Source of the DNA: Pseudodesulfovibrio mercurii
Lineage (GTDB): Bacteria; Desulfobacterota; Desulfovibrionia; Desulfovibrionales; Desulfovibrionaceae
Assembly (NCBI RefSeq): GCF_000189295.2
Contig: NC_016803.1
Location: 1,410,001-1,442,000, forward strand
DNA: 32,000 nucleotides
Direction: 5' to 3'
Shown: piece after piece, positions 12,590 to 30,487 of the stretch
Layout: each line of letters begins with the position of its first letter
Numbering within the stretch: the stretch's first letter is position 1
Position numbers and translations under genes: made by a program
Notes under the pieces: generated by a model
The model's input: the letters and a program-made list of their open reading frames with translations, nothing else
What the model was told of the DNA's origin: nothing
Databases searched by the model: none

Positions 12590-12709
12590 GGATGCTTCCT
12601 CCACTTTTTCCATCCTACCCGCATCGCGGCGGGCTGTACAGGGGAGGCGAGGCGGCAACCCGCGCGAAAAGGAGTGGACCAACGCGCGCGCCTGGGTCAT
12701 CATCTCCGG

Positions 12710-14521: not shown

Positions 14522-14673
14522 CCCGGCACGGACACCGAAACGACACCGGCGGGGTCCGCAATATTGCAGATATGTATATCCCCGACGCCTGAATAACATA
14601 TTTGTAATATTTTTCTTCCCTTTTCGTATGCGGGACCGCCCGGAAAGCCAAGCCCCGCGCCATATTTCGCGCA

Positions 14674-14688
14674 TGGCATCGTGTTTGC
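14674..14688 (+). promoter_or_regulatory. Sigma-54 (-24/-12) promoter candidate directly upstream of nifA
   Basis: TGGCAT-cgtgt-TTGC (14674-14688) is a good match to TGGCAC-N5-TTGC. The -12 GC lies only about 12 nt before the annotated ATG at 14701. Confidence 0.45.
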
Positions 14689-14700
14689 TATTCATCAGCC

Positions 14701-16284
14701 ATGCATGCGAATGTCCCCGGATTGAAACTGTCGGCCCTGCAGTCCATCTGCCAGGTCATCGACCAGGCCATGGACCTGCAATCGGCACTGGACGGCGTTC
14801 TGAAGATACTTTCGGAACAGCTGGCCATGCAGCGGGCCACGGTGACCCTCTTCGACCCCGAGACGGGCCAGCTGTCCATCAACGCCTCCTACGGCCTGAC
14901 CGTGGAGGAGAAGCGGCGCGGCGTGTACCGGCTGGACGAGGGCGTCACCGGGCGCATCTTCCAGACCGGTGAACCCTACTACGTGCCGGACATCGACAAG
15001 GAACCGCTCTTCCTGGACAAGACCGGGTCGCGCCGGGTCAAGCGCGGCATGATCTCGTTCATCGGCGTGCCCATCATCCTCCACGGCGACCCCATCGGCG
15101 TGCTCAACGTGGACCGCCTGTTCGAGGACGAGATCAGCTTCGAGGAGGACATCGACTTCCTCAAGGTGGTGGCCACGCTCATCGGCCAGTTCCTCAGCCT
15201 GAACGAGAAGATCATGGCCAGGGAGGCCGCCCTGAAGCGCGAGAACACCTCCCTCAAGTACCAGATTTCCAAAAATTCCAAGGGCCCGTACATCGTGGGC
15301 CAGAGCTCGGCCATGGTCGAGGTGCAGCGCCAGATGGAGAAGGTCTCGCCCACCCGGGCCACGGTCCTGCTGCTCGGCGAATCCGGCGTGGGCAAGACGC
15401 TCATCGCCAAGATCATCCACGAGCTGTCCGAGCGCAAGGGCAACCCGTTCATCAAGGTCAACTGCGCGTCCATCCCCGGCAACCTGCTGGAATCCGAGCT
15501 GTTCGGCCACGAGAAGGGAGCCTTCACCGGGGCCACGGGCACCCGGCCCGGCCGCTTCGAGGAGGCGGACACCGGGACCATCTTCCTGGACGAGATCGGC
15601 GAACTGCCCATGGGGTTGCAGGCCAAGCTCCTGCGCGTGCTCCAGGACAAGGAACTGGAGCGGCTCGGCTCCAACCGGACCCGGACCATCGACGTGCGCA
15701 TCCTGGCCGCCACCAACCGCGACCTGGGCCACCTGGTGGAGCGCGGCCGGTTCCGCCTGGACCTCTACTACCGGCTGAACGTCTTTCCCATCCGCGTGCC
15801 CCCCCTGCGCGAGCGCAAGGAGGACATCACCGGCCTGCTCAACCATTTCCTGCGCAAGATGGCCGAGGACTACGGGCGCAACATCCACCTGACCTCCACG
15901 GCCCTGGACGCGCTCATCCGCTACGACTGGCCCGGCAACGTCCGCGAGATGCAGAACCTCATCGAGCGGCTGGTGATCATGTCCGAGGAGGACCGCATCA
16001 GCCTGGAATTCGTCAAGTCCTACCTGGCGCCCGGCCAGTCGGCCGCGGTCCAGGAGGCCCTGCCCATCTCCGAGGACGCCCCGCGCCACACCTCCCTCAA
16101 GGAGTTCGAGCGCAACGAGGTCATGGCCGCCCTGGAGCGCAACGGCTGGGTCCAGTACAAGGCCGCCGAGGCCCTGGGGCTGTCCGCCCGCCAGATGGGC
16201 TACCGGGTCAAGAAGTACGGCCTGGAGTCCATGATCGCCGAGGGCCGGGCCCGAATCCGGCGGCTGAAGGACGGCCAGGCGTAA
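14701..16284 (+). CDS. nifA: Sigma-54-dependent transcriptional activator, NifA-like (GAF, AAA+, Fis-type HTH)
   Basis: The N-terminal GAF domain reads [28 protein letters not shown]...[18 protein letters not shown]. The AAA+ domain has GESGVGKT and the GAFTGA loop ([13 protein letters not shown]). The C-terminal HTH reads [28 protein letters not shown]. It neighbours the nif operon. The Cys-rich interdomain motif of O2-sensitive NifA proteins is absent. Confidence 0.85.
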
Positions 16285-16317
16285 ATTTTCGGCATACCTA
16301 CCTCCACCCCATTCAAG

Positions 16318-16358
16318 ATGCCCCTCGCCGGACGGTCCGGCGGGGGGCATCGGGTTTT
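16318..16358 (+). terminator. Terminator-like hairpin after nifA
   Basis: atgcccctcgccggacggtccggcggggggcat is a long GC stem (16318-16350) followed by cgggTTTTc. Confidence 0.5.
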
Positions 16359-16425
16359 CGGGGCTGCGCGCTTGCCTGCGGGCCCGGAGGACTTATCTTT
16401 TGGGGAGACGGAACGATCCGGCCCC

Positions 16426-16680
16426 ATGGCCGGAAAGGAGGTTGCCAAGACCTATGTTACCGCCGCACGGTTCGACAGGAACCGCCTGAAAAACGATGAA
16501 GCGCTCCGCGAAAAGGCGGAGGGCGTGCAGCGCCATCTCGAGGAGATCGCGCTGGACGTCGGCCTGGACCCGTCCAGGAACGTCATCCGCGCCGAAGTGG
16601 GCGACGAGGTCCGCATCGGCATCAGCGAGGACATGGACGAGTACTACCGCGAAGCGCCCGGAAGCTGGCGTTTCTACTAG
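16426..16680 (+). CDS. Hypothetical 84-aa acidic protein
   Basis: ATG at 16426 (MAGKEVAKTYVTAARFDRNRLKNDEALREKAEGVQRHLEEIALDVG...). Composition is protein-like and I recognise no family. The part of the track ORF upstream of this ATG overlaps the nifA terminator hairpin. The Shine-Dalgarno is weak. Confidence 0.45.
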   Translation: MAGKEVAKTYVTAARFDRNRLKNDEALREKAEGVQRHLEEIALDVGLDPSRNVIRAEVGDEVRIGISEDMDEYYREAPGSWRFY

Positions 16681-16704
16681 ACGCCCGCCCGAACGCCATG
16701 AAAA

Positions 16705-16736
16705 AGGCCCCGCCGTCACCGGCGGGGCCTTGTCGT
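16705..16736 (+). repeat. 32-nt hairpin repeat, copy 1
   Basis: aggccccgccgtcaccggcggggccttgtcgt has the stem ggccccgccg/cggcggggcc. It is identical over all 32 nt to 16880-16911 in the same orientation. It is preceded by AAAAA, so on the minus strand it reads as a hairpin followed by TTTTT. Confidence 0.8.
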
Positions 16737-16756
16737 GTTATCAAAGTTCATTCCGG

Positions 16757-16879
16757 CAGGTTGTCGAGAAAGGTTCGAGTGCCAGGCGCAAAAAAAGGCA
16801 AGGCCGACGCGTACTTCCTGTACGCGAGGGTTTGACTTTTTTGAAGCAACGACGCAATCGGGCCTTTCTCGGCAACCTG
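16757..16879. repeat. 17-nt inverted repeat pair (16757-16773 and 16863-16879) enclosing a bidirectional terminator-like palindrome
   Basis: caggttgtcgagaaagg compared with the reverse complement of cctttctcggcaacctg (caggttgccgagaaagg) matches at 16 of 17 positions. Confidence 0.7.
16790..16842. terminator. Bidirectional terminator-like element between the convergent transcription units
   Basis: A7 (16790-16796), N11, cgcgtac/ttcct/gtacgcg (16808-16826), N10, T6 (16837-16842). The flanks can extend the stem imperfectly. Read on either strand, the hairpin is followed by a T run. Confidence 0.5.
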
Positions 16880-16911
16880 AGGCCCCGCCGTCACCGGCGG
16901 GGCCTTGTCGT
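16880..16911 (+). repeat. 32-nt hairpin repeat, copy 2
   Basis: Exact direct copy of 16705-16736, located 20 nt downstream of the stop of the minus-strand 81-aa ORF. Confidence 0.8.
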
Positions 16912-16930
16912 TGAGGTCGGAACGAATCGG

Positions 16931-17176
16931 CTATTCGAGAACGCCGAGGGTGCGCACCGAGGCGATCTTTTCCCAGTCGTAGTAGGTGTTGATGTTCAGG
17001 CCGTCCTTGACGCAGGTCACGCGGACGAATTCCTCGCCCAGGAACAGGGTCGCTCCCTCGTAGACCTCGCCCTCGTTGACCTGGATCTTGACGTCCTTGC
17101 GCAGCTTGCGGGACATGGTCCCCTGCACGGGTTTGGACGCGTATTCGAAAACCTTTTCCAATGTCGCCTTGTTCAT
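16931..17176 (-). CDS. Hypothetical 81-aa protein, last gene of the nif operon strand
   Basis: A strong RBS precedes the ATG (atGGAGGAaaacATG). The sequence is MNKATLEKVFEYASKPVQGTMSRKLRKDVKIQVNEGEVYEGATLFLGEEFVRVTCVKDG.... I recognise no family. It has a vaguely Sm-like beta pattern. Confidence 0.6.
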   Translation of the reverse strand: MNKATLEKVFEYASKPVQGTMSRKLRKDVKIQVNEGEVYEGATLFLGEEFVRVTCVKDGLNINTYYDWEKIASVRTLGVLE

Positions 17177-17337
17177 GAGTTTTCCTCCATTCGGGTTCCA
17201 GGTTGCCGCGGGCCGGAAAGCCCGGCCCGGGAAAGACTGTCAAAGGTCGCGCCGGGCCGGTGCGGCCGTGCCGCACCCAAGGTCAATGCGGTCCGATGCC
17301 CCGCCGGAACGGGAGACCGGACCGTAGCGGCCCCGAT

Positions 17338-18606
17338 CTAGCCACACCCGGCCCCGCCGCCCGCGCAACCCGAGCCGATGCCCGAGCGGCGGACCTTCAG
17401 GGCGTTGATGTCGCCGCCCTCGAAGACGAAGCGCAGGGCGTCCTCGATGAAGCCGTCCACGGTGTGGGCCTTGATGTCGTGTTCCTCGAGAACCAGGCGC
17501 GGGGTCTCGCCCACGGCGGCGCAGAGCACCGCCCGGCAATCCTTGAGCAGGGCGGCCAGGTCGGCCCAGCGCTGGGGGCCGCAGCCCGCCTGCGGGGCGG
17601 GACGCTCCTCGATGAGCCGGTAGCCGCCGGACTCGGACTCGCCCCAGATCTGGAAGGACTTGGCCTCGCCCAGGTGCTGGTTGACGAGCAGCCCCTCGCG
17701 GGAGGCCACGGCCACGAACGGGCGGGCCATGGTCACTTCCAGGGGCTTGAGCTTGGAGCAGGCCTGGAGCGTGCCGCACAGGGCCGAGGACTGGTCGTTG
17801 TCGAGCAGACCGACCGCGTCGGCGCGGCAGCGCTTGCAGTGGGTCATCTGCTCGATGAAGGGTCCGGCCTCCTTGCGCAGGGGCAGGACGGTCTCGCGGC
17901 CCGGCTCGGGAATCCCGGCGAACGGGGTGTCGGCCGTGGGCTTGAGCGGAATCATGTTCTGGATGTCGGCCCCGAGCGAGGCGCAGACCTTGGCCACCTC
18001 GACGAGATGGTGGTCGTTGATGCCGGGGATGACGATGGAGTTGATCTTGACCGTGATACCGCGCTCCTTGAGGCCCTTGATGGCCTTGAGCTGGCGGTCC
18101 AGGAGAATCTCCGCGCCCTTCTCGCCGTGGTAGACCACGTTGCCGTCCTTGACCCAGGCGTAGATCTGGGCCCCGATGGCCGGGTCCACGGCCGAGATGG
18201 TGATGGTCACGTGGGACACGCCGAGCTCGGCGATGTCGTCCAGGTACGGCAGGATGCCCATGCCGTTGGTGGACAGGCAGAAGATCAGCTCGGGGTGCTT
18301 CGCGTTCAGCAGGCGCATGGTCTCCAGGGTCTCGGCCGGGTTGGCGAAGGGATCGCCGGGTCCGGCGATGCCCGCCACGGTGATGCGCGGTTCCTTTTCC
18401 AGGACCTTTTCCATGTATTCGGCGGCCTGGAACGGCTTGAGCACGCCGGAGGTCACGCCGGGGCGGGACTCGTTCACGCAGTCGTACTTGCGGTTGCAGT
18501 AGTTGCACTGGATGTTGCACTTGGGCGCCACGGGCAGGTGCACGCGGCCGCAGCTTCCGGCGCTCTTCTTGTTGAAACAGGGGTGCTTGGTGGTATCCTT
18601 GGACAT
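17338..18606 (-). CDS. nifB: NifB, radical SAM FeMo-cofactor (NifB-co) biosynthesis protein with a C-terminal NifX-like domain
   Basis: The start is placed at the ATG at 18606 (MSKDTTKHPCFN...), preceded by AGGAGA. It has HPCF, the radical SAM motif CNIQCNYC, a further Cys motif HCKRCRADAVG, and a NifX-like C-terminal domain (FVAVASREGLLVNQHLGEAKSFQIW). It ends in an unusual Gly/Cys tail, SGIGSGCAGGGAGCG. Confidence 0.92.
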   Translation of the reverse strand: MSKDTTKHPCFNKKSAGSCGRVHLPVAPKCNIQCNYCNRKYDCVNESRPGVTSGVLKPFQAAEYMEKVLEKEPRITVAGIAGPGDPFANPAETLETMRLLNAKHPELIFCLSTNGMGILPYLDDIAELGVSHVTITISAVDPAIGAQIYAWVKDGNVVYHGEKGAEILLDRQLKAIKGLKERGITVKINSIVIPGINDHHLVEVAKVCASLGADIQNMIPLKPTADTPFAGIPEPGRETVLPLRKEAGPFIEQMTHCKRCRADAVGLLDNDQSSALCGTLQACSKLKPLEVTMARPFVAVASREGLLVNQHLGEAKSFQIWGESESGGYRLIEERPAPQAGCGPQRWADLAALLKDCRAVLCAAVGETPRLVLEEHDIKAHTVDGFIEDALRFVFEGGDINALKVRRSGIGSGCAGGGAGCG

Positions 18607-18677: not shown

Positions 18678-20045
18678 TTAGATATATCCGTAGCCGATGG
18701 GCGAATCGGCCTGCTTCTTCTCGATGATCGCGTTGACCACCCGGTCGAACAGGGCCTGGGTGCCCTTGTAGCCGAGGGTCAGGGTGCGCTGGCCGCCGAA
18801 GCGGTCGTGGATGGGGAAGCCCACGCGGACCAGGGGCACGTTCCACGCCTTGGCGTAGCGATAGCCCTTGGAGTGGCCCACCAGCAGGTCCGGGGCCAGT
18901 TCCTCGGCCTCGGCCGCGATGTCGTGGAAGTCCACGGCCTCGCGCACCTGCGGGGCGATGCGGGCCACGCCGTCGGTGACCTTGGCGATGGCCTCCTCCA
19001 GCCCCTTGTTGCGCGCGCCGGTGCCGGCCAGGACCACGTCCACGCCGATCTCGGCCAGGAAGGCGCACAGGCCGACGACCAGGTCCTCCTCGCCGTAGAC
19101 CACGGCGCGCTTGCCGAAGATGTACTTGTGGCCGTCCACGTAGGCGTCCACCAGACGGCCGCGCTCCAGCTCGTAGCGGCGCGGCATGGGCTTGCCGGAG
19201 ATGTCCTCCAGGGCCTCGAAGAAACGGTCGGACTCGCGCAACCCCATGGGCAGGCCGAGGCGGTGGTTGGGCACGCCGAAGCGCTCCTCCAGGCTGGTGC
19301 CGCCGGTCTTGGCGGGCAGGCAGCGGCCGAACTCGATGGTCGCGCTGGAGCCGCTCATGGTCTTGATGTCCCGGATGGGCGTGCCGCCCTCGGGAATCTT
19401 GACGTAGTCCTCCAGCGCCGGGCCATCCAGGGTCTCGGAGATGTCCGGGAGGATGGTCGCCTCGATGCCGAAATGGTCGCAGATGTCGCGCAGGTGGCGG
19501 ACGTCCTCGCAGGAGACCAGGCTGGGCAGGATGTTCACCCGGCCGGTGGGCGGGGTCTCCTCCAGGCAGAGCTGCTCGACCATGGAGCGGACCGCGCCGT
19601 GCCAGCCGTCCATGTGCGTGCCGTTGTAGCTGGGGGTCGAGACCCGGACCAGCTCTGGCAGGTCGAGATCACCGAATTCCTTGTAAAACTCGCCGAAGTA
19701 CATGGGCACGTCGTCGCCGATGGTCTCGGTCAGGCAGGTGGTCGCCACGCCGATGAGCTGCGGCTCGTACTTCTTCATGACGTTGAGGATGCCCTTCTTC
19801 AGGTTCGGGCCGCCGCCATAGATGGCGTTCTTCTCGCCCAGCGCCGAGGAGGCGATGTCCACGGGCTCGCGAAAGTGGGAGATGATGTACCGGCGCATGT
19901 AGGTGGCGCAGCCCTGGGAGCCGTGCAGGAAGGGAATGGCCCCCTCCACGCCCCGGAAGGCCAGGGAGGCCCCGAGCGGCGTGCACAGCTTGCAGGCATT
20001 GGTGGTGGAGACGAAGTTCGGCTTCACGGTCTTGACCTTACTCAT
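18678..20045 (-). CDS. nifN: NifN, FeMo-cofactor biosynthesis scaffold subunit
   Basis: The start is the ATG at 20045 (MSKVKTVKPNFVSTTNACKLCTPLGASLAFRGVEGAIPFLHGSQGCATY...). It overlaps the nifE stop as ATGAGTAA and is preceded by AAGGAGG. The protein is NifK-like and sits immediately after nifE. Confidence 0.9.
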   Translation of the reverse strand: MSKVKTVKPNFVSTTNACKLCTPLGASLAFRGVEGAIPFLHGSQGCATYMRRYIISHFREPVDIASSALGEKNAIYGGGPNLKKGILNVMKKYEPQLIGVATTCLTETIGDDVPMYFGEFYKEFGDLDLPELVRVSTPSYNGTHMDGWHGAVRSMVEQLCLEETPPTGRVNILPSLVSCEDVRHLRDICDHFGIEATILPDISETLDGPALEDYVKIPEGGTPIRDIKTMSGSSATIEFGRCLPAKTGGTSLEERFGVPNHRLGLPMGLRESDRFFEALEDISGKPMPRRYELERGRLVDAYVDGHKYIFGKRAVVYGEEDLVVGLCAFLAEIGVDVVLAGTGARNKGLEEAIAKVTDGVARIAPQVREAVDFHDIAAEAEELAPDLLVGHSKGYRYAKAWNVPLVRVGFPIHDRFGGQRTLTLGYKGTQALFDRVVNAIIEKKQADSPIGYGYI

Positions 20046-21432
20046 TGACGGCCTCCTTGCGGGCTGCCTTGACGCGGTTGGCGCGCCTCGGGGCGAACTG
20101 CCAGACGGGGGACATGACCGAGGAGTGGATCTCGCGGGCGAAGTTGAGCATGCCGCGGAACCCTTCCAGGGCTTCCTTGCGCTCGTGGTTGTGGTCGCAG
20201 AAGCCCACGCCCAGCTTGTAGGCGATGGGCCGTTCCTTGACCCCGCCCACAAACACGTCCACGTCCTTCTCCTTGATGAAGTGGGAGAGTTCCAGGGGGT
20301 TGGCGTCGTCGATGATGACCGTGCCGGGATCGGTGATCTCGGCCAGTTCGGCGTAGTCCTCCTTGGTGCCGGTCTGGGAGCCGACGACCACGACCTTCAT
20401 GCCCAGGTGGCGGAAGGCCTTGACCAGGGAGAAGGCCTTGAAGGAGCCGCCCACGTACATGGCGACCTTCTTGCCCTCCAGATCCTTGCGGTAGCGGGCC
20501 AGCTCGGGCATGAGCTTCTGCAGCTCCTCGCGGACCAGGGCCTGGGTCCGCTCCACGATGCCGGGGTCCTTGTCCTTGAAGAAGTCGGCCACTTGGTACA
20601 GGGAGTCGGCCATATCCTCGATGCCGAGGTAGGAGACGCGCTTGAACGGGGTGCCGAACTCCTCCTGCATCATCTTGGCCAGGTCCAGGGTGGCTCCGGA
20701 GCACTGGACTAGGTTCAGGGCCGCGCCGTGGCAGCGGGCGATGTCGGCCACGCGGCCGTCGCCGGTGATGTTGGCCACCACCTGCACGCCCATGCGCTCG
20801 AAGTACTCGCGAATGATCCAGATCTCGCCGGCCAGGTTGAAGTCGCCGAGAATATTGATGGAAACCGGAGAAATGTCGGAGGTGTCGCCCTTGCCGATGA
20901 GCCGGAACATGGCCTTGCACGCGGCCAGGTACCCGGCGCGCTTGTTGCCCTTGAACCCCTCGGACATGACCGGCAGCACCGGGATGCCCTTCTTCTCGCT
21001 CATCTTGCGGCAGACCGCCTCCAGGTCGTCGCCGATGAGCCCCACGATGCAGGTGGAGTAGACAAAGGCGGCCTTGGGGGAGTGCCTGTCGATGAGTTCG
21101 TCCAGGGCGGCTTCGAGCTTTTTCTCGCCGCCGAAGATGACGTCCGTCTCCTGGAGATCCGTGGAAAAGGACAGCCGGTGGAGTTCCGGGCCGCTGGACA
21201 GCGAGCCGCGGATGTCCCAGGTGTAGACCGCGCAGCCGATGGGCCCGTGCACCAGGTGCAGGGCGTCGGCGATGGGATAGAGGACCACGCGGGAACCGCA
21301 GAACACGCAGGCGCGCTGGCTGACGGCGCCCGCCAGGGATTCGCGGTTGCAGGCGATGTCGATGGCGCCTTCGCCGGTGCGGTGGATCTGGTCCCGTCTT
21401 TCCTCGAGGATGGTCGAACTGGTCGTACGCAT
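20038..21432 (-). CDS. nifE: NifE, FeMo-cofactor biosynthesis scaffold subunit
   Basis: The protein is NifD-like (AVSQRACVFCGSRVVLYPIADALHLVHGPIGCAVYTWDIRGS...) and 464 aa long. It is followed by nifN with translational coupling. Confidence 0.92.
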   Translation of the reverse strand: MRTTSSTILEERRDQIHRTGEGAIDIACNRESLAGAVSQRACVFCGSRVVLYPIADALHLVHGPIGCAVYTWDIRGSLSSGPELHRLSFSTDLQETDVIFGGEKKLEAALDELIDRHSPKAAFVYSTCIVGLIGDDLEAVCRKMSEKKGIPVLPVMSEGFKGNKRAGYLAACKAMFRLIGKGDTSDISPVSINILGDFNLAGEIWIIREYFERMGVQVVANITGDGRVADIARCHGAALNLVQCSGATLDLAKMMQEEFGTPFKRVSYLGIEDMADSLYQVADFFKDKDPGIVERTQALVREELQKLMPELARYRKDLEGKKVAMYVGGSFKAFSLVKAFRHLGMKVVVVGSQTGTKEDYAELAEITDPGTVIIDDANPLELSHFIKEKDVDVFVGGVKERPIAYKLGVGFCDHNHERKEALEGFRGMLNFAREIHSSVMSPVWQFAPRRANRVKAARKEAVNE

Positions 21433-21455: not shown

Positions 21456-21887
21456 TTACAAGTCGTTGCCCGGACGATGGATGTTGCGGCCGAGACCGGG
21501 GACCGGGGCCGCGTCCGGGTCCGCGAGGAGCATCAGTCTACCCGCGCTGTCGGCCCTGGCCCACTCGGTGAGCCGGTTGATCAGCAGTTCGCCGAGGCCC
21601 TGGCCCCGCCAATCCTCACGGACAACCACATCTTCGATGAGGACGGCGGGGCCGCCTTCAGCCTCAAGGATCGTCAGCCGTCCCGAACACATGCCGACCA
21701 CAGTCCCGTCGGCGACGTTCGCGATCAGGATGCGTCCCCGACCGTTTTTCAGCATCAGTTCCAGATCGCTCCGCCGCCCGTCCCCGGAGGCGCGGTCCTC
21801 GACGGGCGAGGAGGCCGAACCGGCCAGGGTCACGAGACCGGAAAGGTCCGCGCGGGTTGCGGGGCGGATGACGACGGCTTCAGGCAT
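21456..21887 (-). CDS. GNAT-family N-acetyltransferase
   Basis: 143 aa. The acetyl-CoA binding motif context is IEDVVVREDWRGQGLGELLINRL. It is tightly packed between the ferredoxin gene and nifE, with gaps of 15 and 23 nt. Confidence 0.75.
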   Translation of the reverse strand: MPEAVVIRPATRADLSGLVTLAGSASSPVEDRASGDGRRSDLELMLKNGRGRILIANVADGTVVGMCSGRLTILEAEGGPAVLIEDVVVREDWRGQGLGELLINRLTEWARADSAGRLMLLADPDAAPVPGLGRNIHRPGNDL

Positions 21888-21902: not shown

Positions 21903-22205
21903 TTAGGACGCCAGGTAGTCGGCGGCGGGCTCGCCGTCTTCCAGACCGTCCAGAATTGCGTCGATCGCTGCTTCGGAATCCACGCCCTTGAACCACCAGT
22001 TCTCGGGCTGGATGACCATCATGGGCCCTGATTCGCACTGCTTCAGGCAGGTGGAACCGACAACCAGGGCGTCCAAACCGCGATCCAAAATTTCTTCCTC
22101 GATATACTGCAGGAAACCGTCGGTCTGCTTGTGGCAGATGCCCTTGGGCTCACCGGCCGCACGGAAGGACTGACAACAGATGATCATTCTCTGGGGGATA
22201 GCCAT
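21903..22205 (-). CDS. Thioredoxin-like [2Fe-2S] ferredoxin
   Basis: 100 aa, with AAGGAGA upstream of the ATG. Cysteines at positions 11, 24, 53 and 57 (IICCQSF...GICHKQ...STCLKQCESGP) match the spacing of the thioredoxin-like 2Fe-2S ferredoxin family, as in Clostridium pasteurianum-type ferredoxin. Confidence 0.75.
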   Translation of the reverse strand: MAIPQRMIICCQSFRAAGEPKGICHKQTDGFLQYIEEEILDRGLDALVVGSTCLKQCESGPMMVIQPENWWFKGVDSEAAIDAILDGLEDGEPAADYLAS

Positions 22206-22225: not shown

Positions 22226-23401
22226 TTACTTCTTGTTCTTCTTGCCTTTCTTACCGCCCCCGTAGAGCACATCCACGGTTCCCTCGATCTCGCCGTCCGT
22301 GATCAGGACGGACAGACCCTTGCGGCTCAAAATTTGTCGCGGGCTCTCCCCGGCCGAGGCGGCCAGCAGGACGAAACAGTCGTGCAGGGTCTCGGACAGG
22401 TCCTCCCAGCGCTGGGCCCCGGTACCGGGCTCAGGCAGGTCGCGCATGCCCAGCAGGCAGGCCAGGCCGTCGCCGCGCGGGCCGTAGATCATGGCCTTGA
22501 TGGCGTGGCCCAGGTGCAGGTCCACCTCCATGCCGTTGGAGCTGACCACGGCCACGTTGGGCCGTTCCCTGGTGGGCTTGGGCAGGATCGAGACCTTGGC
22601 GTCGGTCTTGCCCGGCGTTTCCAGGCCGACCAGGTCCTGGCCGCACTCGTCGAAGCCGGGCATGATGTCGATGTGCCGGGCCGCGCGGTCGCGGATCTCG
22701 GCCAGCAGCTCCATGTCCGTGGCCGCGGGCGCGTCCTCCACGCCCTCCTCGGGGTGGTAGGGGACCACGGCCATGATGTCCGCGCCGAGCCCGGCCATGG
22801 TTGAGGCGATCTTCTCCACGTGCCCGGCGTTGTAGCCGGGGTACACGGTGGTGTTGATCTTGACGGTCAGACCGGCGCGCTTGAAGGCGGTCACGGCCCG
22901 GGCCTGGTCCGTGATGAGCAGCTCCACGGCCTCCTTGAGGGGCAGGGTGTGCCGCGCGGGCCTGACCCAGGCGTAGAGCTTCTCCGCCACCTCGGGGTCC
23001 ACGGCGTCCACGAGCACGGTCACGTGAGCCACGCCGAGGTCGGCCAGTTCCTCGGCGTACTCGGCGCCGTTCATGCCGAGCGTGGTCAGGCAGAGGGAAA
23101 GATCGGGGTACTTGTCCCGAACCAGGCGCAGGGTGCGCAGGGTCAGGTCGGGGGCGGTCAGGGGATCGCCGGGACCGGTGATGCCGACGATGCCGATGGG
23201 CTTGCCCTGCTCCACCACGTGGTCGAGCCAGTTCAGGGCCTCTTCGGGCATCATGGCGGGCTTGGAGCCGTTGCTCCCGGAAAAACGGATGCGGGCGTTG
23301 GCGCGCGGGGCCACGGGCAGGTGCAGGCGGCCCACGGTCTTGCGTGAGGTCATGCCGAAGCAGGGATGGGATGCGTAGCCTTCAGCGGTGGTCTTGGACA
23401 T
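22226..23401 (-). CDS. NifB paralog lacking the radical-SAM CxxxCxxC cysteines, with a NifX-like C-terminal domain
   Basis: 391 aa. It is collinear with the true NifB: HPCF...GRLHLPVAP / GIVGITGPGDP / LCLTT / HVTVLVDAVDP...YAWV / GLTVKINTTV / LGADIMAVVP, then a NifX-like domain (VAVVSSNGMEVDLHLGHAIKAMIY). Where NifB has PKCNIQCNYCN, this protein has PRANARIRFSG (nt 23279-23302). Where NifB has HCKRCRADAVG, it has FDECGQDLVG. Confidence 0.85.
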   Translation of the reverse strand: MSKTTAEGYASHPCFGMTSRKTVGRLHLPVAPRANARIRFSGSNGSKPAMMPEEALNWLDHVVEQGKPIGIVGITGPGDPLTAPDLTLRTLRLVRDKYPDLSLCLTTLGMNGAEYAEELADLGVAHVTVLVDAVDPEVAEKLYAWVRPARHTLPLKEAVELLITDQARAVTAFKRAGLTVKINTTVYPGYNAGHVEKIASTMAGLGADIMAVVPYHPEEGVEDAPAATDMELLAEIRDRAARHIDIMPGFDECGQDLVGLETPGKTDAKVSILPKPTRERPNVAVVSSNGMEVDLHLGHAIKAMIYGPRGDGLACLLGMRDLPEPGTGAQRWEDLSETLHDCFVLLAASAGESPRQILSRKGLSVLITDGEIEGTVDVLYGGGKKGKKNKK

Positions 23402-23437
23402 GACGGCCTTCTTGGTTAGGGGGAAACAGGGTTGTTT

Positions 23438-23474
23438 GGTCCGGGGCGGAGGGGGAAGGACTCCGCCCCGGACC
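23438..23474 (-). promoter_or_regulatory. Strong intercistronic hairpin after nifK (possible partial terminator or mRNA stabiliser)
   Basis: ggtccggggcggag (23438-23451), a 9-nt loop, then ctccgccccggacc (23461-23474) forms a 14-bp perfect GC-rich stem. It lies in the 83-nt nifK to NifB-paralog gap. No T run follows on the minus strand. Confidence 0.45.
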
Positions 23475-23485
23475 GGGTATGAACG

Positions 23486-24862
23486 CTACAGGACGAGTTC
23501 GAATTTCGTCTCCGGATCGTCGCGGTCCTTACGATCCAGCAGCAGATCCAGGATCTTCTCGAGAAGCCTGAGTCCGCCCTTGTAGCCGACTGTCGGGAAG
23601 TACTGGTGGCCCTGGCGGTCCAGGATGGGGAAGCCCCAGCGCAGCAGCGGGATGTCTTCGTCCCGGGCGATGTACTTGCCGTAGGTGTTGCCGATGAGCA
23701 GGTCGACCGGCTCGTTCTTGATCCACTGGTGCATCAGGAACATGTCGCCCTTGGCCTTGACCTTGACCTCGAAGGGCTGGCCTTCGCAGATCTCCTTGAT
23801 GCGGCGCTCGAAGGCCTTGCCCGGGGTGCCGGTGACCACGTAGACGGGCTGCATGTCCAGGGAGACCAGGAACTCGCACATGGAGATGAGCTGGTCCGGA
23901 TCGCCCCAGATGGCCACGCGCTTGCCGTAGAAGTACTGGTGCATGTCGGAGATCATGTCCACCAGCTGGCCGCGCTCGAGGTTCACGGACTCGGGCACGG
24001 ACACGCCGGCCACGGTGCGCAGGACGTCGATGAAGCGGTCGGTGGCGGCCAGGCCGAAGGGCATGTCCAGCACGGTGCACGGGACCTTGCACTTGGCGTC
24101 GAGCCAGCGGGCGGCGTCTGCCGAACACCATTCGCCGAGGGCCAGGGTGCCGAGCGCGTCGCCGGTCTTCTTGAGTTCCTCGATGGTCACGCCGCCGTCG
24201 GGGAACATCTTGTATTCGCCGGTCAGGGGGGCGTTGAGCACGCCGTCGGTGTCCGGGAACAGGGTGATGTCCACGCCGACCATGGCGCACAGCCGCTTGA
24301 TCTCGCCCATGTCGGAGGGTTCGACCCAGCCGGGGATGACGTTGACCTTGTGGCTCTTGTGGCCCGAGGGCTCGGCCAGCATGGCCATGGACTTGACCAT
24401 GTTGGAGAAGCCGGTCACGTGGGAGCCCACGTAGCTCGGGGTGGAGGCGCCGACCAGGGTCTTGCCGGCCGGGACCTTGCCTTCCTTCTGAGCCTTGTCG
24501 AAGATCTGGTTCAGATCGTCGCCGATGGTCTCGGACAGGCAGGTGGTGTGCACGGCGATCACTTCCGGGTCGTAGACCGTGAAGATGTTGTTGATCGCCT
24601 GGAGCAGGTTGGCGTGGCCGCCGAAGACGGACGCGCCTTCCGTGAACGAGCTGGTGGACGCGGACACGGGCTCCTTATAGTGCCGGGTCAGGGCCGAGCG
24701 GTGGTAGGCGCAGCAGCCCTGGGAGCCGTGGGAGTGCGGCAGGCAGCCGTGGATGCCGAGCGCGGCGTACATGGCGCCGATGGGCTGGCACGTCTTGGCC
24801 GGATTGATGGTCAGCGACTTGCGCTCCATCACTTCAACGGGGGTATGTCTGAGTAATGCCAT
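23486..24862 (-). CDS. nifK: Nitrogenase MoFe protein beta chain
   Basis: 458 aa (the short NifK form of anaerobe-type nitrogenases). Sequence includes TINPAKTCQPIGAMYAALGIHGCLPHSHGSQGCCAY.... The RBS is AAGGAAGGAAG. It follows nifD by 15 nt. Confidence 0.95.
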   Translation of the reverse strand: MALLRHTPVEVMERKSLTINPAKTCQPIGAMYAALGIHGCLPHSHGSQGCCAYHRSALTRHYKEPVSASTSSFTEGASVFGGHANLLQAINNIFTVYDPEVIAVHTTCLSETIGDDLNQIFDKAQKEGKVPAGKTLVGASTPSYVGSHVTGFSNMVKSMAMLAEPSGHKSHKVNVIPGWVEPSDMGEIKRLCAMVGVDITLFPDTDGVLNAPLTGEYKMFPDGGVTIEELKKTGDALGTLALGEWCSADAARWLDAKCKVPCTVLDMPFGLAATDRFIDVLRTVAGVSVPESVNLERGQLVDMISDMHQYFYGKRVAIWGDPDQLISMCEFLVSLDMQPVYVVTGTPGKAFERRIKEICEGQPFEVKVKAKGDMFLMHQWIKNEPVDLLIGNTYGKYIARDEDIPLLRWGFPILDRQGHQYFPTVGYKGGLRLLEKILDLLLDRKDRDDPETKFELVL

Positions 24863-24877: not shown

Positions 24878-26515
24878 TTATTCCCACACAAAGGTGCCGG
24901 TGAGTTCGGGAGACTTCTGCCAGGGGGCCTCCGTGTAGGACCAGACCTTGCTGCTCACGAGGCGATCGACCGTCTTGTAGAAGTTGATCGCGCCCTTGAA
25001 GCCCGCGAAGGGTCCGCCGTAGTCGTAGCTGTGCAGCTGGAGCATGGGCACACCGTTCTTCTGGATGGAGTACTTCTCCTTGATGCCGGCGCAGAAGATG
25101 TCCGGCTTGTAGAGCTCCACCAGCTTTTCGGCCTCGTACTGGTTGAGGTCGTCGATGACGATGGTGCCGTTGCCCATCTGCTCGTTCATGCCGTCGTAGT
25201 CCTTGAACTCGAAGCCGGAATCCTCCATGGCCTTGATCTGCTCGGGGGACTTGCGCGGGTTGTAGAGTTCCGGATCGGCCGAGACCTCGATCTCCTCGAT
25301 GTTGCGGGAGTCGGCGTCCGGGACCAGTTCCGGGATGACCCGGCGGCCTTCATAGTCGTCGCGGTGGGCGAACTCATACCCTGCGGACAGGGTCTTCATG
25401 CCCAGCTCGGTGAACAGGTCCTGGTAGTGATGGGCGCGGGAACCGCCGACGAACAGCATGGCGGTCTTGCCCTGGGTGTGCGGCTTGTGCGCGGCCAGGG
25501 CGGCCTCGACGTCCTTCATCTCCTCGGCGATGACCTCTTCGATGCGGTCGATGAGCTTCTGGTTGCCGAAGTACTCGCCGATCTTGCGCAGGGACTTGGC
25601 CGCGGACTTGGCGCTGATGAAGTTCACCTTGAACCACGGGATGCCGTACTTGGTCTCCATCATGTCGGCCACGTAGTTGATGGACCGGTGGCACATGACC
25701 AGGTTCAGATCGGCGTGGTGGGCCCGGGCGAACTGGTCGTAGGACGAGTTGCCGGAGAAGGTGGACAGGCAGGTGATGCCGCACTTCTTGAAGATGCGGT
25801 CGATCTCGAAGCCGTCGCCGCCGATGTTGTACTCGCCGAGCAGGTTGATCTTGAACTCGCCGTCCTGTTCCTTCTGCTCCTCGCCCACCAGGTGGGTGAA
25901 GACCTGGTTGTTGGCGATGTGGTGGCCGGCGGACTGGGAAACGCCCTTGTAGCCCTCGCAGGAGAAGGCGAACACGTTGCAGTCCCCGAACTTCTCCTTC
26001 ATCTTCCTGGACACGGCATGGATGTCGTCGCCGATCAGGCCCACCGGGCAGGTGGCGAAGACGCAGATGCCCTTGGGATGGAGCAGGTCGTAGGCCTCCT
26101 GGATGGCGGCCGCGAGCTTCTTCTCGCCGCCGAAGATGATGTCCTGGTCCTGCATGTCCGTGGAGAAGCAGTAGGGCATGTAGTTGGCGCCGTCCGGACC
26201 GGGGTCGGTCTGGTTGCGGCGGGTCAGCCAGGAGTAGAATCCGCAGCCGATGGGGCCGTGGGTGATGTTCACGATGTCGCGGGTCGGGCCCATGATGACG
26301 CCCTTGCAGCCTGCGTAGGTGCAGCCCCGCATGGTGATGATGCCAGGGATGGTGCGGACGTTGGCCAGAATCTCCGGCGGCGAGTCGCTCCCCGTGGCTT
26401 CGTTGATCATGATCTGCTTGGCGCGCTTGCGGGCCACCTTCGGAGGATACTTGGAAAGGATATCTTCCTTCACGTCGGTGGGCGTGAGCTGCACGAGCTT
26501 TTTCGTCTTGGCCAT
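24878..26515 (-). CDS. nifD: Nitrogenase MoFe protein alpha chain
   Basis: The start is placed at the ATG at 26515 (MAKTKKLVQL...), preceded by GAAGGAGA. The track start at 26533 is a TTG inside that RBS region. The cofactor-ligand contexts are present (LNLVMCHRS and QLHSYDYGGPFAGFKG). At 545 aa it is the long NifD form typical of anaerobes. Confidence 0.95.
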   Translation of the reverse strand: MAKTKKLVQLTPTDVKEDILSKYPPKVARKRAKQIMINEATGSDSPPEILANVRTIPGIITMRGCTYAGCKGVIMGPTRDIVNITHGPIGCGFYSWLTRRNQTDPGPDGANYMPYCFSTDMQDQDIIFGGEKKLAAAIQEAYDLLHPKGICVFATCPVGLIGDDIHAVSRKMKEKFGDCNVFAFSCEGYKGVSQSAGHHIANNQVFTHLVGEEQKEQDGEFKINLLGEYNIGGDGFEIDRIFKKCGITCLSTFSGNSSYDQFARAHHADLNLVMCHRSINYVADMMETKYGIPWFKVNFISAKSAAKSLRKIGEYFGNQKLIDRIEEVIAEEMKDVEAALAAHKPHTQGKTAMLFVGGSRAHHYQDLFTELGMKTLSAGYEFAHRDDYEGRRVIPELVPDADSRNIEEIEVSADPELYNPRKSPEQIKAMEDSGFEFKDYDGMNEQMGNGTIVIDDLNQYEAEKLVELYKPDIFCAGIKEKYSIQKNGVPMLQLHSYDYGGPFAGFKGAINFYKTVDRLVSSKVWSYTEAPWQKSPELTGTFVWE

Positions 26516-26539
26516 GTATACTTTCTCCTTCAATAGGCG

Positions 26540-26914
26540 CTAAGCGATCGCCTTTTCACCGGTTTCATGGGTTCTGACGCGCACGGCGTCACCGACGGGC
26601 AGGACGAAGATCTTGCCGTCGCCGGGCTTGCCGGTCCGGTTGGCGGCCATGATGGCCTGAACCACGTCCTCCACCATGTCGTCGGGCACGACCACGGTCA
26701 CCATGCGCTTGGCGTAGAGCTTGCCCTTCTCGCCCAGCACTTCGGCCGCTTCCTCGTAGCCCTGCTCCACTCCGGAGACGATGGCCGCATTGACGAACCC
26801 CTTGCCGCGGCCCTGCGCCTCGTGGGCGAAGAAGGCATCCACACCGGCTTCGGTGAGGGCGGACTTGGTCTTGTTCATCATGTTCATGCGCACCACTGCG
26901 ATGACTTCCTTCAT
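26540..26914 (-). CDS. nifI2: PII-like nitrogenase regulator NifI2
   Basis: A GlnB-family fold with an extended T-loop (HEAQGRGKGFVNAAIVSGVEQGYEEAAEVLGEKGKLYAKR). Its ATG overlaps the nifI1 stop (TAATG at 26912-26916). It lies between nifH and nifD, as in nifI-containing clusters. Confidence 0.88.
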   Translation of the reverse strand: MKEVIAVVRMNMMNKTKSALTEAGVDAFFAHEAQGRGKGFVNAAIVSGVEQGYEEAAEVLGEKGKLYAKRMVTVVVPDDMVEDVVQAIMAANRTGKPGDGKIFVLPVGDAVRVRTHETGEKAIA

Positions 26915-27267
26915 TACGCGGCCCCCTCGCTGGCTGCGGCGGTCTCGTTGACGCCGGAGCTGATGGTGTAGACACCTTCCACTTCGGTGACGAAGATCTT
27001 GCCGTCGCCGAAGGCGCCCTTGGTGCCGGAGCGGGCGGCGTCCATGATGGTGTTGATGACGAATTCCTTGTCCTCGGCGTTGACGACGCTCATGAGCATG
27101 GTTTTGGGGATCTCGTCATAGGTGACCTCGCCGATCTTGATGCCGCGCTGCTTGCCGCGACCGGCCACGGAGTACTTGGTGACGGCGGGAAAGCCGTTGT
27201 CCATAAGGGCGGCCAACACGTCGTCCGCTTTCTCGGGCCGAACAATTGCTCGAATCATGATCATCAT
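26914..27267 (-). CDS. nifI1: PII-like nitrogenase regulator NifI1
   Basis: GlnB-family protein (MIRAIVRPEKADDVLAALMDNGFPAVTKYSVAGRGKQRG...GDGKIFV). The RBS AGGAGA lies 8 nt upstream of the first ATG. It is the first gene after nifH. Confidence 0.88.
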   Translation of the reverse strand: MMIMIRAIVRPEKADDVLAALMDNGFPAVTKYSVAGRGKQRGIKIGEVTYDEIPKTMLMSVVNAEDKEFVINTIMDAARSGTKGAFGDGKIFVTEVEGVYTISSGVNETAAASEGAA

Positions 27268-27332: not shown

Positions 27333-28199
<867 letters not shown>

Positions 28200-28204
28200 C
28201 TATG

Positions 28205-28219
28205 GCAAAGGACGTGCCA
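28205..28219 (-). promoter_or_regulatory. Sigma-54 promoter of the nifH operon
   Basis: The minus strand reads TGGCAC-gtcct-TTGC (28219->28205), an essentially consensus -24/-12 element. The -12 element is about 45 nt upstream of the nifH ATG. Confidence 0.85.
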
Positions 28220-28354: not shown

Positions 28355-28421
28355 AAAATCCTCTCATTTCAGTCAAGAAATTACTTATTTTATTTCAATA
28401 TGATAGATGAAAAGTCCGCGT

Positions 28422-28436
28422 TGGCATCCTTCATGC
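28422..28436 (+). promoter_or_regulatory. Sigma-54 promoter candidate for the nifV-modB unit
   Basis: TGGCAT-ccttc-ATGC (28422-28436) has the GG and GC at correct spacing. It lies 48 nt upstream of the ATG at 28484. Confidence 0.55.
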
Positions 28437-28483
28437 TCAAGGGAAGGCAGGATCATCGACAACCATACAAGAGGACAAAGCAC

Positions 28484-29578
28484 ATGTTGATCGACACCAC
28501 ACTCAGGGAAGGAGCGCAGCTCTTCGGGGCCTACTTCTCCATGGAGGCCCGGGAACGGATCGTGTCCGGCTTGCTGTCCATCGGCGTGGACGAGATCGAG
28601 CTGGGCTGGGTCGGCCAGGAGGGCCTGGACGAACTCATCCATAGAATAGGGAAACGGCGCGGCCGGACCGCCCTGTCCGTCTGGTCGCCCTGCCGCGAGG
28701 CGGACATCCGCAAGGCCTCGGGCCTGAAGGTGGACCGCATCAACATCGGCGTGCCCGTTTCCGACCTGCACATCGAAAACCGACTCCGGACCGACCGCGA
28801 GGGGCTTCTGGAACGCCTGGCCCGCACCGTGCTCGCGGCCCGGCTCTTGGGGATGGATTACGTGTCCGTCGGCCTGGAGGACCTCTCCAGGGCCGACACG
28901 GACTTCGCCCTGAAGGCGGCCGGACTGGCCCAGGACGTGGGCGCGGCCCGCGTGCGCCTGTCCGACTCCCTGGGGCTGCTCACCCCGATGAAGACCGCTG
29001 AACTGGTCGCCGCCTTCCAGCGGAAACTGGACATCGACCTGGCCGTGCACTGCCACGACGACTTCGGCATGGCCACGGCCAACGCGGTCACCGCCCTGTC
29101 CAGCGGCGCGGACTACGCCGACGGCAGCGTGCTCGGCATCGGCGAACGGTCCGGCATCGCGGCCACCGAGGAGCTGGCCACCTACCTGACGCTCAAGGAG
29201 GAAAGTCATGCATACAAGGTTGAAGACCTTCGCGGCCTCTGCCATTTCGTTTCTCAAGCTGCCGGGGTGCCGATTCCCCGAACCAAGGCGATCGCGGGCA
29301 AGGACATTTTCGCTTGCGAGTCCGGCCTTCACGCGCACGCCCTCAGCAAGTCGCCTGAGCTTTTCGAGCCCTTCGATCCCGGCCGCATCGGCGCGGACCG
29401 GATGGTCGCGGTTGGCGGCAAGAGTGGGCGAGCGGCGGTCGCCCACGCCCTTGCGGACCGTGGGCTCGAGCTCCCCGAGCAGGGACTCCCGGCCCTTGTG
29501 GACGAAGTAAGGAAGCTGGCCTGGGAGCTGGAACGCCCCCTGACCGACAAGGAACTGACCAAGCTGGTCAAGAACTAG
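28484..29578 (+). CDS. nifV: Homocitrate synthase (NifV-type, HMGL-like / LeuA-family catalytic domain)
   Basis: The start is taken as the ATG at 28484 (MLIDTTLREGAQLFG...). The track start at 28400 lies upstream of the putative promoter. The metal-ligand motif is VHCHDDFGMATANA. Length (364 aa) and position next to nif genes fit NifV. The first motif reads LREGAQ rather than the more usual LRDGEQ or LREGEQ. Confidence 0.75.
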   Translation: MLIDTTLREGAQLFGAYFSMEARERIVSGLLSIGVDEIELGWVGQEGLDELIHRIGKRRGRTALSVWSPCREADIRKASGLKVDRINIGVPVSDLHIENRLRTDREGLLERLARTVLAARLLGMDYVSVGLEDLSRADTDFALKAAGLAQDVGAARVRLSDSLGLLTPMKTAELVAAFQRKLDIDLAVHCHDDFGMATANAVTALSSGADYADGSVLGIGERSGIAATEELATYLTLKEESHAYKVEDLRGLCHFVSQAAGVPIPRTKAIAGKDIFACESGLHAHALSKSPELFEPFDPGRIGADRMVAVGGKSGRAAVAHALADRGLELPEQGLPALVDEVRKLAWELERPLTDKELTKLVKN

Positions 29579-29731: not shown

Positions 29732-30487
29732 ATGGACTTCACCGCGCTCCTGATCACCGGCAAGCTGGCCCTGGCGGTCACGCCCCTGCTGCTCGCCCTG
29801 TGCATGCCCCTGGCCTACTGGCTGGCCATGTCGCGCGCGCCGGGCAAACGCTTCGTCGAGGCGGCCTGCAACCTGCCCATGGTCCTGCCGCCCACGGTGC
29901 TCGGCTTCGGTCTGCTCATGGTCATGAGCCCGGCGTCCCCCTTCGGCGCGGCCTGGGAAGCCCTGTTCGGCTCTCCCCTGCCCTTTTCCTTTTCCGGGCT
30001 GGTTCTCGGTTCCCTGGCCTACAGCCTGCCCTTCGGGGTTCTGCCCATGCGCGCCGCCTTCGAGAAGATCGATCCCGGCATCGTGGAGGCGGCCCGCTGC
30101 TCGGGCATGACCCACGTCCAGGCCTTCCGCCACGTCATCCTGCCCAACGCCATGGGCGGGGTCACAGCCTCGGCCGCGCTCATCTTCGCGCACACCGTGG
30201 GCGAGTTCGGCGTGGCCCTGATGCTCGGCGGGTCCATCCCCGGCCGGACCAAGGTGGCCTCCATCGCCATCTTCGAACACACCGAGTCCCTGGAATACGG
30301 CCAGGCGGGCATGCTCTCCCTGGCCCTGCTGGTCGTGAGCTACGCGACCCTGCTTTTCATCGGACGCCACGGCCTGGCCGGACGCCCCGCACCCGCAAGG
30401 ACCCCGGCGGACGTCCGGTCCCGCCGCCGCGCCTTTCAAGATACCCAGAGAGGTTTCCATGCAGACCATATCCACGCAGTACGGTGA
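29732..30487 (+). CDS. modB: Molybdate ABC transporter permease
   Basis: CysTW/ModB-type permease (NLPMVLPPTVLGFGLLMVM, EAA-loop IVEAARCSGMTHVQAFRHVILPNA, LIFAHTVGEFGVALMLGG). It has a ~30-aa Arg-rich C-terminal tail that overlaps the next ORF by 29 nt. Confidence 0.85.
   Translation: MDFTALLITGKLALAVTPLLLALCMPLAYWLAMSRAPGKRFVEAACNLPMVLPPTVLGFGLLMVMSPASPFGAAWEALFGSPLPFSFSGLVLGSLAYSLPFGVLPMRAAFEKIDPGIVEAARCSGMTHVQAFRHVILPNAMGGVTASAALIFAHTVGEFGVALMLGGSIPGRTKVASIAIFEHTESLEYGQAGMLSLALLVVSYATLLFIGRHGLAGRPAPARTPADVRSRRRAFQDTQRGFHADHIHAVR

Follow-up and report, generated by a model that had tools for sequence, protein, structure and literature searches.

The nitrogen fixation (nif) operon of Pseudodesulfovibrio mercurii carries, directly behind nifK, a gene whose 391-residue product is built like NifB and has lost the cysteines of the radical S-adenosylmethionine (SAM) cluster. 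The gene lies in a 32,000-nucleotide stretch of contig NC_016803.1 (positions 1,410,001 to 1,442,000; hereafter the window, within which all coordinates are counted), together with the true nifB of the same operon. With moderate confidence, this paralog is best regarded as a non-catalytic escort for the NifB cofactor (NifB-co) or for FeMo-co (iron-molybdenum cofactor), descended from a two-domain NifB. Loss of the catalytic site, predicted fold, residue conservation, purifying selection and synteny were computed; the binding of a cluster, the partner proteins and the direction of transfer are what we infer.

[quoted passage not shown] The dead NifB barrel, keeping the shape of NifB, would act as a module for docking or holding; in the Desulfovibrionaceae branch of the family, where Cys14, His27, Cys104 and Cys253 are kept, these ligands make it probable that the barrel's K1 pocket still has an Fe-S cluster bound. 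The paralog would be made from the nifH operon, directly after nifK, and would escort the cluster among NifB, NifEN and apo-NifDK where the stand-alone proteins NifX, NafY and NifY are missing. Its position after nifK would also fit a NafY/NifY-like role at apo-NifDK.

Catalytic site, NifX-like domain and family

A Pseudodesulfovibrio mercurii protein named "Radical SAM domain protein" matches the product at 100% identity, and BLASTP aligns the product collinearly, over its full length, with the operon's own NifB (17338-18606, 422 aa; 36% identity over 405 columns, E 2e-81). The collinearity, shared motifs and Lys-rich tail described in an earlier note on this DNA, made from the letters alone, are all present, the motifs in common being HPCF, GR(L/V)HLPVAP, GPGDP, xCLxT, YAWV, VKIN and LGADI. 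In profile searches, Pfam Radical_SAM (PF04055) scores 47.7 bits against a gathering score of 29.5, the match beginning only at profile position 22 and leaving the cysteine-motif segment uncovered. Pfam Nitro_FeMo-Co (PF02579) reaches 23.3 bits against a gathering score of 26.3 (E 8e-5), and most orthologs have a precomputed match to it. With the TIGR01290 nifB model the paralog obtains 191.8 bits and falls below the cut-off of 343.65, which the true NifB passes with 378.1.

Radical-SAM chemistry requires the radical-SAM (RS) cluster, and the synthesis of NifB-co from two [4Fe-4S] clusters and SAM is predicted to be impossible without it. Where NifB has CNIQCNYC, the paralog reads ANARIRFS, and both the codons and the alignment agree exactly with the replacement of the three cysteines by Ala, Ile and Ser that the earlier note had read at 23279-23302. 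The replacement is itself conserved (R-[AS]-N-[AST]-[RK]-x-[RK]-F across the family, with the R-A-N-A-R-I-R-F stretch at 74%), and conserved arginines surround the former cluster loop. No Cys or His substitutes for the triad at or near the loop in any member examined, and CX3CX2C is absent from all 120 closest homologs (52-100% identity) and from 256 family members. A frameshift concealing the motif was considered and rejected, as three-frame translation of 23200-23420 shows no CX3CX2C. In addition, the TxTxN asparagine of NifB is not kept, the NifB segment HCKRCRADAVG has become FDECGQDLVG, and the flexible loop with Cys52/Glu53 is deleted together with the ExRP segment (NRKYDCVNESRPG in NifB versus GSNGSKPA in the paralog). 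GPGDP, which corresponds to the SAM-binding GGE motif, does not vary within the family. The claim that this protein cannot do radical chemistry is upheld by the family-wide loss of the triad, the loop and ExRP; so far as the sequence tells, such chemistry is excluded and the paralog is a pseudo-enzyme in the strict sense.

Residue equivalences were taken from a HMMER alignment to M. thermautotrophicus NifB (MthNifB), whose ligands are Cys38/42/45 for the RS cluster, Cys18/His31/Cys115 for K1, Cys260/Cys263 for K2 and Cys52/Glu53 in the flexible loop (Jenner et al. 2021, PMC8179604). Scored against this list, the paralog has lost the RS triad, kept the K1 triad and kept one of the two K2 ligands; the K2 pair is incomplete, MthNifB Cys260 corresponding to Phe250 in the paralog and to Trp in most relatives. 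The remark that only a few cysteines remain is correct in number (five) and understates the pattern, the barrel cysteines being exactly those of the K1 site plus one of K2. Over 256 members, the four-site pattern Cys14/His27/Cys104/Cys253 is complete (CHCC) in 106, reduced to the first cysteine (C...) in 63, empty (....) in 58 and intermediate in 29; His27, Cys104 and Cys253 are thus jointly missing in 121 of the 256, including the 63 that retain Cys14. The full set belongs to the Desulfovibrionaceae branch, which includes the P. mercurii paralog and whose members with the K1 triad are only 42-100% identical overall, and the emptied set belongs to a Desulfobulbales-type branch; the split tracks two clades, and the members are therefore not independent observations.

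A full-length AlphaFold2 model, built with a 91-sequence family alignment, reached a predicted local distance difference test score (pLDDT) of 87.8 and a predicted template modelling score of 0.82, low confidence being limited to residues 1-4, the 252-269 linker and the basic tail, which is probably flexible according to this model. Foldseek placed four NifB structures at the top for the barrel (7jmb, 7bi7, 6y1x and 7jma; E 1e-23 to 7e-22), with template modelling (TM) scores, normalised to the target, of 0.81-0.93 and a root-mean-square deviation of 1.9-2.7 Å; other radical-SAM enzymes trailed at E about 1e-9. The C-terminal domain, modelled separately (pLDDT 84.5), found as its best match the NifX chain of the NifEN-NifX complex (9ian_F, E 1.4e-7, query-normalised TM 0.75), followed by the NafY core 1p90 (E 1.9e-5) and archaeal and Thermotoga NifX-like proteins, also including 2yx6 and 1o13. 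As modelled, this domain has the beta-beta-beta-alpha-beta-alpha-beta-alpha fold of the NifX type.

The residues kept throughout the family, His296, Cys342 and Cys315, all sit in the NifX-like domain, and a profile of the family's domain finds NifX (9ian, E 4.5e-5) and NafY (1p90, E 7.8e-5). It has been reported that His35 of A. vinelandii NifX binds the apical Fe1 of NifB-co during transfer to NifE (Schneider et al. 2026, PMC13128457). The same work lists NifX, the NifB C-terminal domain, NafY and VnfX as carriers bearing this histidine, and regards the NifX-like proteins without it, NifY and NafX, as possible placeholders. By that histidine criterion the paralog is, on its sequence, of the carrier type.

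A HMMER scan of 1.8 billion cluster representatives returned 983 relatives; among the best 150 clusters at 50% identity, about 95 have no CX3CX2C, and the motif-less homologs number at least 256. A rough neighbour-joining tree gathers nearly all motif-less proteins in one clade, apart from true NifB, and this clustering points to a single old duplication of a two-domain NifB rather than to repeated decay. Members with a named source belong to species of Pseudodesulfovibrio, Maridesulfovibrio, Desulfocurvus, Salidesulfovibrio and 'Desulfovibrio', and further ones to Desulfobulbaceae, Desulfocapsaceae, Desulfurivibrionaceae and metagenome-assembled genomes of Desulfobacterales. The taxonomy of the distant loci was inferred from the 90% clusters of their NifH and NifK, which they share with Desulfoprunum, Desulfocapsaceae, Desulforhopalus and Desulfopila. 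Six degenerate relatives (P0222, P0224, P0225, P0227, P0229 and P0240) keep CX3CX2C and the NifX-like domain with most K-cluster ligands missing, and may constitute a distinct family of radical-SAM enzymes to which a NifX-like domain has been fused.

Compared with the related loci L002 and L003, where synonymous divergence is informative, the ratio of nonsynonymous to synonymous substitution rates (dN/dS) of the paralog is 0.21-0.24, against 0.07-0.12 for nifK and nifE; by domain it is 0.22-0.27 for the barrel and 0.15 for the NifX-like domain. Disregarded in these comparisons were L002 nifD and nifB, L003 nifN and nifB, and the L009 target, where the rows reflect matches to a paralogous gene or frame breaks. 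With L004 the identities are 83% for nifK, 80% for nifB and 57% for the paralog. Over the same genome pairs, the NifX-like domain of the paralog is 63-69% identical and its barrel 44-57%, whereas true NifB shows 60-85% in the barrel and 55-73% in the NifX-like domain. The constraint is reversed relative to true NifB, the conserved core having moved to the C-terminal NifX-type domain. In L009 (Desulfovibrio caledoniensis lm2024, a complete genome) the paralog and nifN are each read in two frames (10001-11114 and 13328-14694); because the essential nifN is also split, these breaks are more likely assembly indels than pseudogenes.

The paralog gene stands directly behind nifK in 18 of the 18 related loci that carry it, with the 2Fe-2S ferredoxin gene next in every locus whose contig extends there and nifE, nifN and true nifB further downstream wherever the contig continues. 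The earlier note had set it between nifK and nifE; the position is correct, but a ferredoxin gene (21903-22205) and a GNAT acetyltransferase gene (21456-21887) intervene before nifE. Its observation that the cluster has no separate nifX was confirmed by a custom hidden Markov model search, which found the NifX-like domain in the 32-kb window only in the paralog and in NifB. Likewise, no stand-alone NifX-like open reading frame (ORF) occurs within 10 kb of the paralog (less at contig ends) in the 18 related loci, all 18 combining the paralog with the absence of a nearby nifX. The cluster of Nitratidesulfovibrio vulgaris DP4, arranged as nifHI1I2DK-fdx-nifENB, has neither the paralog nor the GNAT gene nor nifX. 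A plasmid-borne copy in D. vulgaris was also considered and rejected, only true NifB being found and the paralog being absent from pDV1 and pDVUL01.

Competing readings of the paralog

Several observations weigh against an escort function. In this operon the true NifB has a NifX-like domain of its own that bears the same histidine, so that the need for a second carrier is not obvious; N. vulgaris DP4, a related diazotroph, can dispense with the function; the paralog evolves 2-3 times faster than nifK, nifE and nifB; its PF02579 score lies slightly under the gathering score; and one half of the family, of the Desulfobulbales type, has lost the K-site ligands. The last of these means that a barrel-bound cluster cannot be the family-wide function, and the absence of the gene from N. 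vulgaris implies that the paralog is accessory. NifX is likewise accessory in A. vinelandii (PMC13128457). The suggestion in the earlier note of a cofactor carrier filling the role of a missing nifX fared differently in its two parts: the carrier part gained strength from His296 and the conserved NifX-like domain, whereas the replacement of nifX was weakened, since N. vulgaris does without both genes and the NifX-like domain of true NifB carries the same histidine.

An unlikely alternative is that the paralog is a pseudo-enzyme partner of true NifB, forming with it a heterodimer in which NifB is activated, stabilised or gated. The entire NifB architecture and predicted fold are preserved, every locus with a long enough contig includes a true NifB, the barrel is under purifying selection, and a dead paralog that activates its enzyme has documented precedent (PMC5201418). 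The barrel, the presumed homotypic interface, is nevertheless the less conserved half, the gene adjoins nifK rather than nifB, and N. vulgaris NifB functions without the paralog. Somewhat less probable is a product-release or hand-off factor that pairs with true NifB through the common fold and takes the [8Fe-9S-C] cluster first into a K1-type pocket, then onto His296 and from there to NifEN. That estimate covers, as parts of the same scheme, an intramolecular relay from the fossil active site and a GNAT enzyme that could tune the tail by lysine acetylation. Were this scheme true, the paralog would be a natural, radical-inert trap for the product state of NifB.

The chances are low, and lower than for hand-off, that the paralog acts upstream of NifB as a cluster donor or store, its K1 site (with Cys253) holding a [4Fe-4S] cluster to be passed to NifB in place of a NifU-type donor. 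An intact crystallographic K1 triad, conserved among Desulfovibrionaceae members as little as 42% identical, and an adjoining 2Fe-2S ferredoxin gene are what such a donor would lead one to expect; about half of the family, of the Desulfobulbales type, nevertheless lacks His27, Cys104 and Cys253 and has the same synteny, NifX-like domain and tail, and a donor role does not account for the strongest constraint falling on the NifX-like domain. Even more doubtful is a placeholder or antagonist that, carrying no cluster, sits on NifEN or NifDK where NifB or NifX would dock and in this way times or limits cofactor flow. Such roles have been proposed for some NifX-like proteins, e.g. NifY and NafX (PMC13128457), and the dispensability of the gene in N. 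vulgaris and its place behind a strong hairpin after nifK agree with one, but the proposed placeholders lack the cofactor histidine, which is found in 256 of 256 members of the paralog family.

A protein that is still an enzyme, with a non-canonical mode of binding SAM or an Fe-S cluster and with a reaction such as sulfur or methyl transfer, is very improbable: the invariant GPGDP and the conserved arginines lining the former cluster loop could be seen in its favour, but no member has a Cys or His replacement for the RS triad, and the TxTxN asparagine and the ExRP/Cys52-Glu53 loop are gone. Finally, a functionless decaying nifB duplicate, or a sequencing artefact masking an intact motif, is refuted by the conservation data, for in spite of the faster evolution of the paralog and the frame break in one related assembly (L009, where the broken nifN indicates assembly errors), the reading frame is intact in more than 250 homologs from two orders, dN/dS is about 0.2, the replacement motif is conserved at 74% identity and CX3CX2C is missing from the alternative frames; together with the fixed synteny and the confidently predicted fold, this bears out the earlier judgement that the gene is functional rather than decaying.

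The nif operon and the rest of the window

The minus strand carries one long nif operon, from nifH through nifB, and its features are collected in Table 1.

Table 1. Features of the paralog and its operon, in window coordinates
Feature	Coordinates	Strand	Basis or remark
nifH	27333-28160	-	Family profiles
P-II genes nifI1/I2	26914-27267 and 26540-26914	-	Family profiles
nifD	24878-26533	-	Family profiles
nifK, immediate upstream neighbour of the paralog	23486..24862	-	Family profiles, synteny
14-bp GC-rich hairpin, 12 nt past the nifK stop, upstream of the paralog start	23438..23474	-	z -4.9
Gene for the NifB paralog (predicted catalytically dead)	22226..23401	-	ATG start, 391 aa, 5 Cys
Cys14 (HPC) = MthNifB Cys18, K1/bridging ligand	23360..23362	-	Cys in 93% of close homologs
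NifB-like partial (beta/alpha)6 barrel without RS cluster site, residues 25-250	22652..23329	-	Pfam, AlphaFold2, Foldseek
His27 (HLPVAP) = MthNifB His31, K1 ligand	23321..23323	-	Alignment
ANARIRFS replacing NifB CNIQCNYC	23279..23302	-	Cys to Ala34, Ile38, Ser41 (MthNifB Cys38/42/45, RS cluster)
Cys104 (LCLTT) = MthNifB Cys115, K1 ligand	23090..23092	-	Alignment
Cys253 (FDEC) = MthNifB Cys263, K2 ligand	22643..22645	-	Alignment
Putative NifX/NafY-type cofactor-binding domain, residues 279-380	22262..22567	-	PF02579 E 8e-5, Foldseek
His296 (HLGH)	22514..22516	-	256/256 members; aligns with NifX His35 and NafY His121
Cys315 (GLACLL)	22457..22459	-	Family-specific, 220/256; Arg in true NifB
Cys342 (HDC)	22376..22378	-	254/256; D-C pair common to NifB, NifX, NafY
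Polybasic tail GGGKKGKKNKK	22229..22261	-	Family consensus LYGGGKKGKK; low model confidence
Thioredoxin-like [2Fe-2S] ferredoxin, 100 aa (Cys11, 24, 53, 57)	21903..22205	-	Downstream neighbour
GNAT acetyltransferase gene	21456..21887	-	12/13 informative loci
nifE	20038..21432	-	TIGR01283, 623.7 bits
nifN (start approximate)	about 18678..20048	-	Family profiles
True nifB	17338..18606	-	Complete RS, K1 and K2 ligand set and NifX-like domain

The hairpin between nifK and the paralog has, in a context of 101 nt, a folding energy of -38 kcal/mol, and a hairpin of differing sequence occupies the same place in 12 of the 12 related loci checked, from two orders (the nifK-paralog spacers of L001-L008, L011, L013, L015 and L017). 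It may stabilise the mRNA 3' end, mark a site of processing or act as an attenuator placed between nifHDK and the genes for accessory functions. Because no T-run follows the hairpin and no sigma-54-like site precedes the paralog, the latter is probably expressed, as its sequence context suggests, by read-through from the nifH promoter at a lowered level. A sigma-54-like site, TGGCACGTCCTTTGCC, lies at 28204-28219 (minus strand), 44 nt upstream of the nifH start codon; such sites are no more numerous in the window than expected by chance, and the nifH one is rightly placed.

The ferredoxin is matched only weakly by the models for 2Fe-2S ferredoxins of Clostridium and Azotobacter; no other neighbour of the paralog is as constant, and N. 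vulgaris retains it. The GNAT gene, missing along with the paralog from N. vulgaris DP4, evolves fast (dN/dS 0.5-0.7). This companion gene and the conserved KKGKK tail suggest, as sequence features, a regulation through lysine acetylation.

Elsewhere in the window, a homocitrate synthase (NifV-like) gene (28400-29578, plus strand) is divergent from nifH and is followed by an ABC-transporter permease gene (29732-30487, plus strand). Beyond nifB, a NifA-like activator gene (14701-16284, plus strand) has GAF, sigma-54 AAA+ and HTH_8 domains, and the 551-aa ORF opposite to it (14695-16350, minus strand), seemingly conserved beside nifB, was discarded as its shadow, long antisense ORFs being common in this GC-rich window. 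A 1033-aa ORF (11594-14695, minus strand) has a zinc-type alcohol dehydrogenase/quinone oxidoreductase domain confined to its last 330 residues; since no family matches the first 700 residues, which also overlap long plus-strand ORFs, the true gene is probably much shorter. Two small putative ORFs downstream of nifB (16393-17276, minus strand; 186 and 108 aa) have no family match and are conserved in the closest relatives only (L001 and L009), which leaves them as candidate genes.

Known systems and significance

NifB (TIGR01290; 6Y1X, 7JMB, 7BI7) is the clear ancestor of the paralog, which shares its collinear order at 36% identity, its barrel and NifX-like domain, the K1 ligands, the equivalent of the K2 ligand Cys263, and GPGDP. 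The paralog differs from NifB in lacking the RS cysteines, the Cys52/Glu53 loop, ExRP and Cys260, in scoring far under the TIGR01290 cut-off, in its reversed domain constraint and in forming a separate clade, and it coexists with true NifB where the contig reaches. With NifX, the NifB-co chaperone (9IAN/9IAO), it has in common the predicted C-terminal fold, the histidine equivalent to His35 and the D-C motif. NifX, however, is a small, stand-alone protein whose acidic C-terminal tail lies on NifE, whereas the paralog has a 260-residue dead barrel and a polybasic tail, its gene follows nifK and not nifEN, and the similarity is at the profile level only (E 4.5e-5). A charge swap at the tail-docking site was considered for the helix equivalent to A. 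vinelandii NifE R97-H104, which docks the acidic NifX tail. This helix might have been acidic here as a counterpart of the basic tail; it reads GGEKKLEAALDELIDRH in the window, its net charge lies anywhere from -1 to +3 in loci of which every one retains the basic tail, and the idea was rejected, no consistent swap being seen across loci.

[quoted passage not shown] In the nifHDKTY operons of Klebsiella and Azotobacter, nifY sits directly after nifK, a place matching that of the paralog. The N-terminal domain of the paralog is, however, a NifB barrel, unrelated to the N-domain of NafY, and NifY lacks the histidine (PMC13128457). Regulators derived from dead paralogs, such as the AdoMetDC prozyme of trypanosomes (PMC5201418), are similarly dead duplicates under selection, encoded alongside the active enzyme; unlike in the prozyme, the most conserved part of the paralog is the ligand-binding domain rather than an interface.

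In public databases the family goes by 'radical SAM protein', 'NifB/NifX family molybdenum-iron cluster-binding protein' or, at JGI, 'nitrogen fixation protein NifB'. Arragain et al. (2017) dropped 28% of annotated NifB sequences, most of them without Cx3Cx2C, and presumed them to be NifX (PMC5715403). A 2024 genome paper on P. methanolicus shows nifB_1 and nifB_2 in Pseudodesulfovibrio clusters with no comment (PMC11505543), and surveys give the Desulfovibrio-type cluster as nifHI1I2DKEN(X)B (PMC11773926). No open-access paper or bioRxiv preprint was found that recognises the family, its ligand pattern or its reversed constraint. What is new is a putative NifX/NafY-type cofactor-binding protein built on a dead NifB, the sequences themselves being already public. 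For annotation, the labels 'NifB', 'nifB_2' and 'radical SAM protein' mean that these genes can be taken in counts for working copies of nifB.

NifB has been described as the bottleneck in moving nitrogenase into plants (PMC5715403). A protein with the shape of NifB, and in this branch with the K1 pocket, that does no radical chemistry could become a tool to trap or stabilise NifB-co. To our knowledge, the route of NifB-co from NifB to NifEN is known only in aerobic models, via NifX, NafY and NifY, and the compact nifHI1I2DK...ENB clusters of anaerobes have none of these three proteins. For Desulfovibrionaceae and Desulfobulbales, widespread sulfate reducers with nif clusters, the paralog with its invariant histidine offers a concrete candidate for the carrier that is missing.

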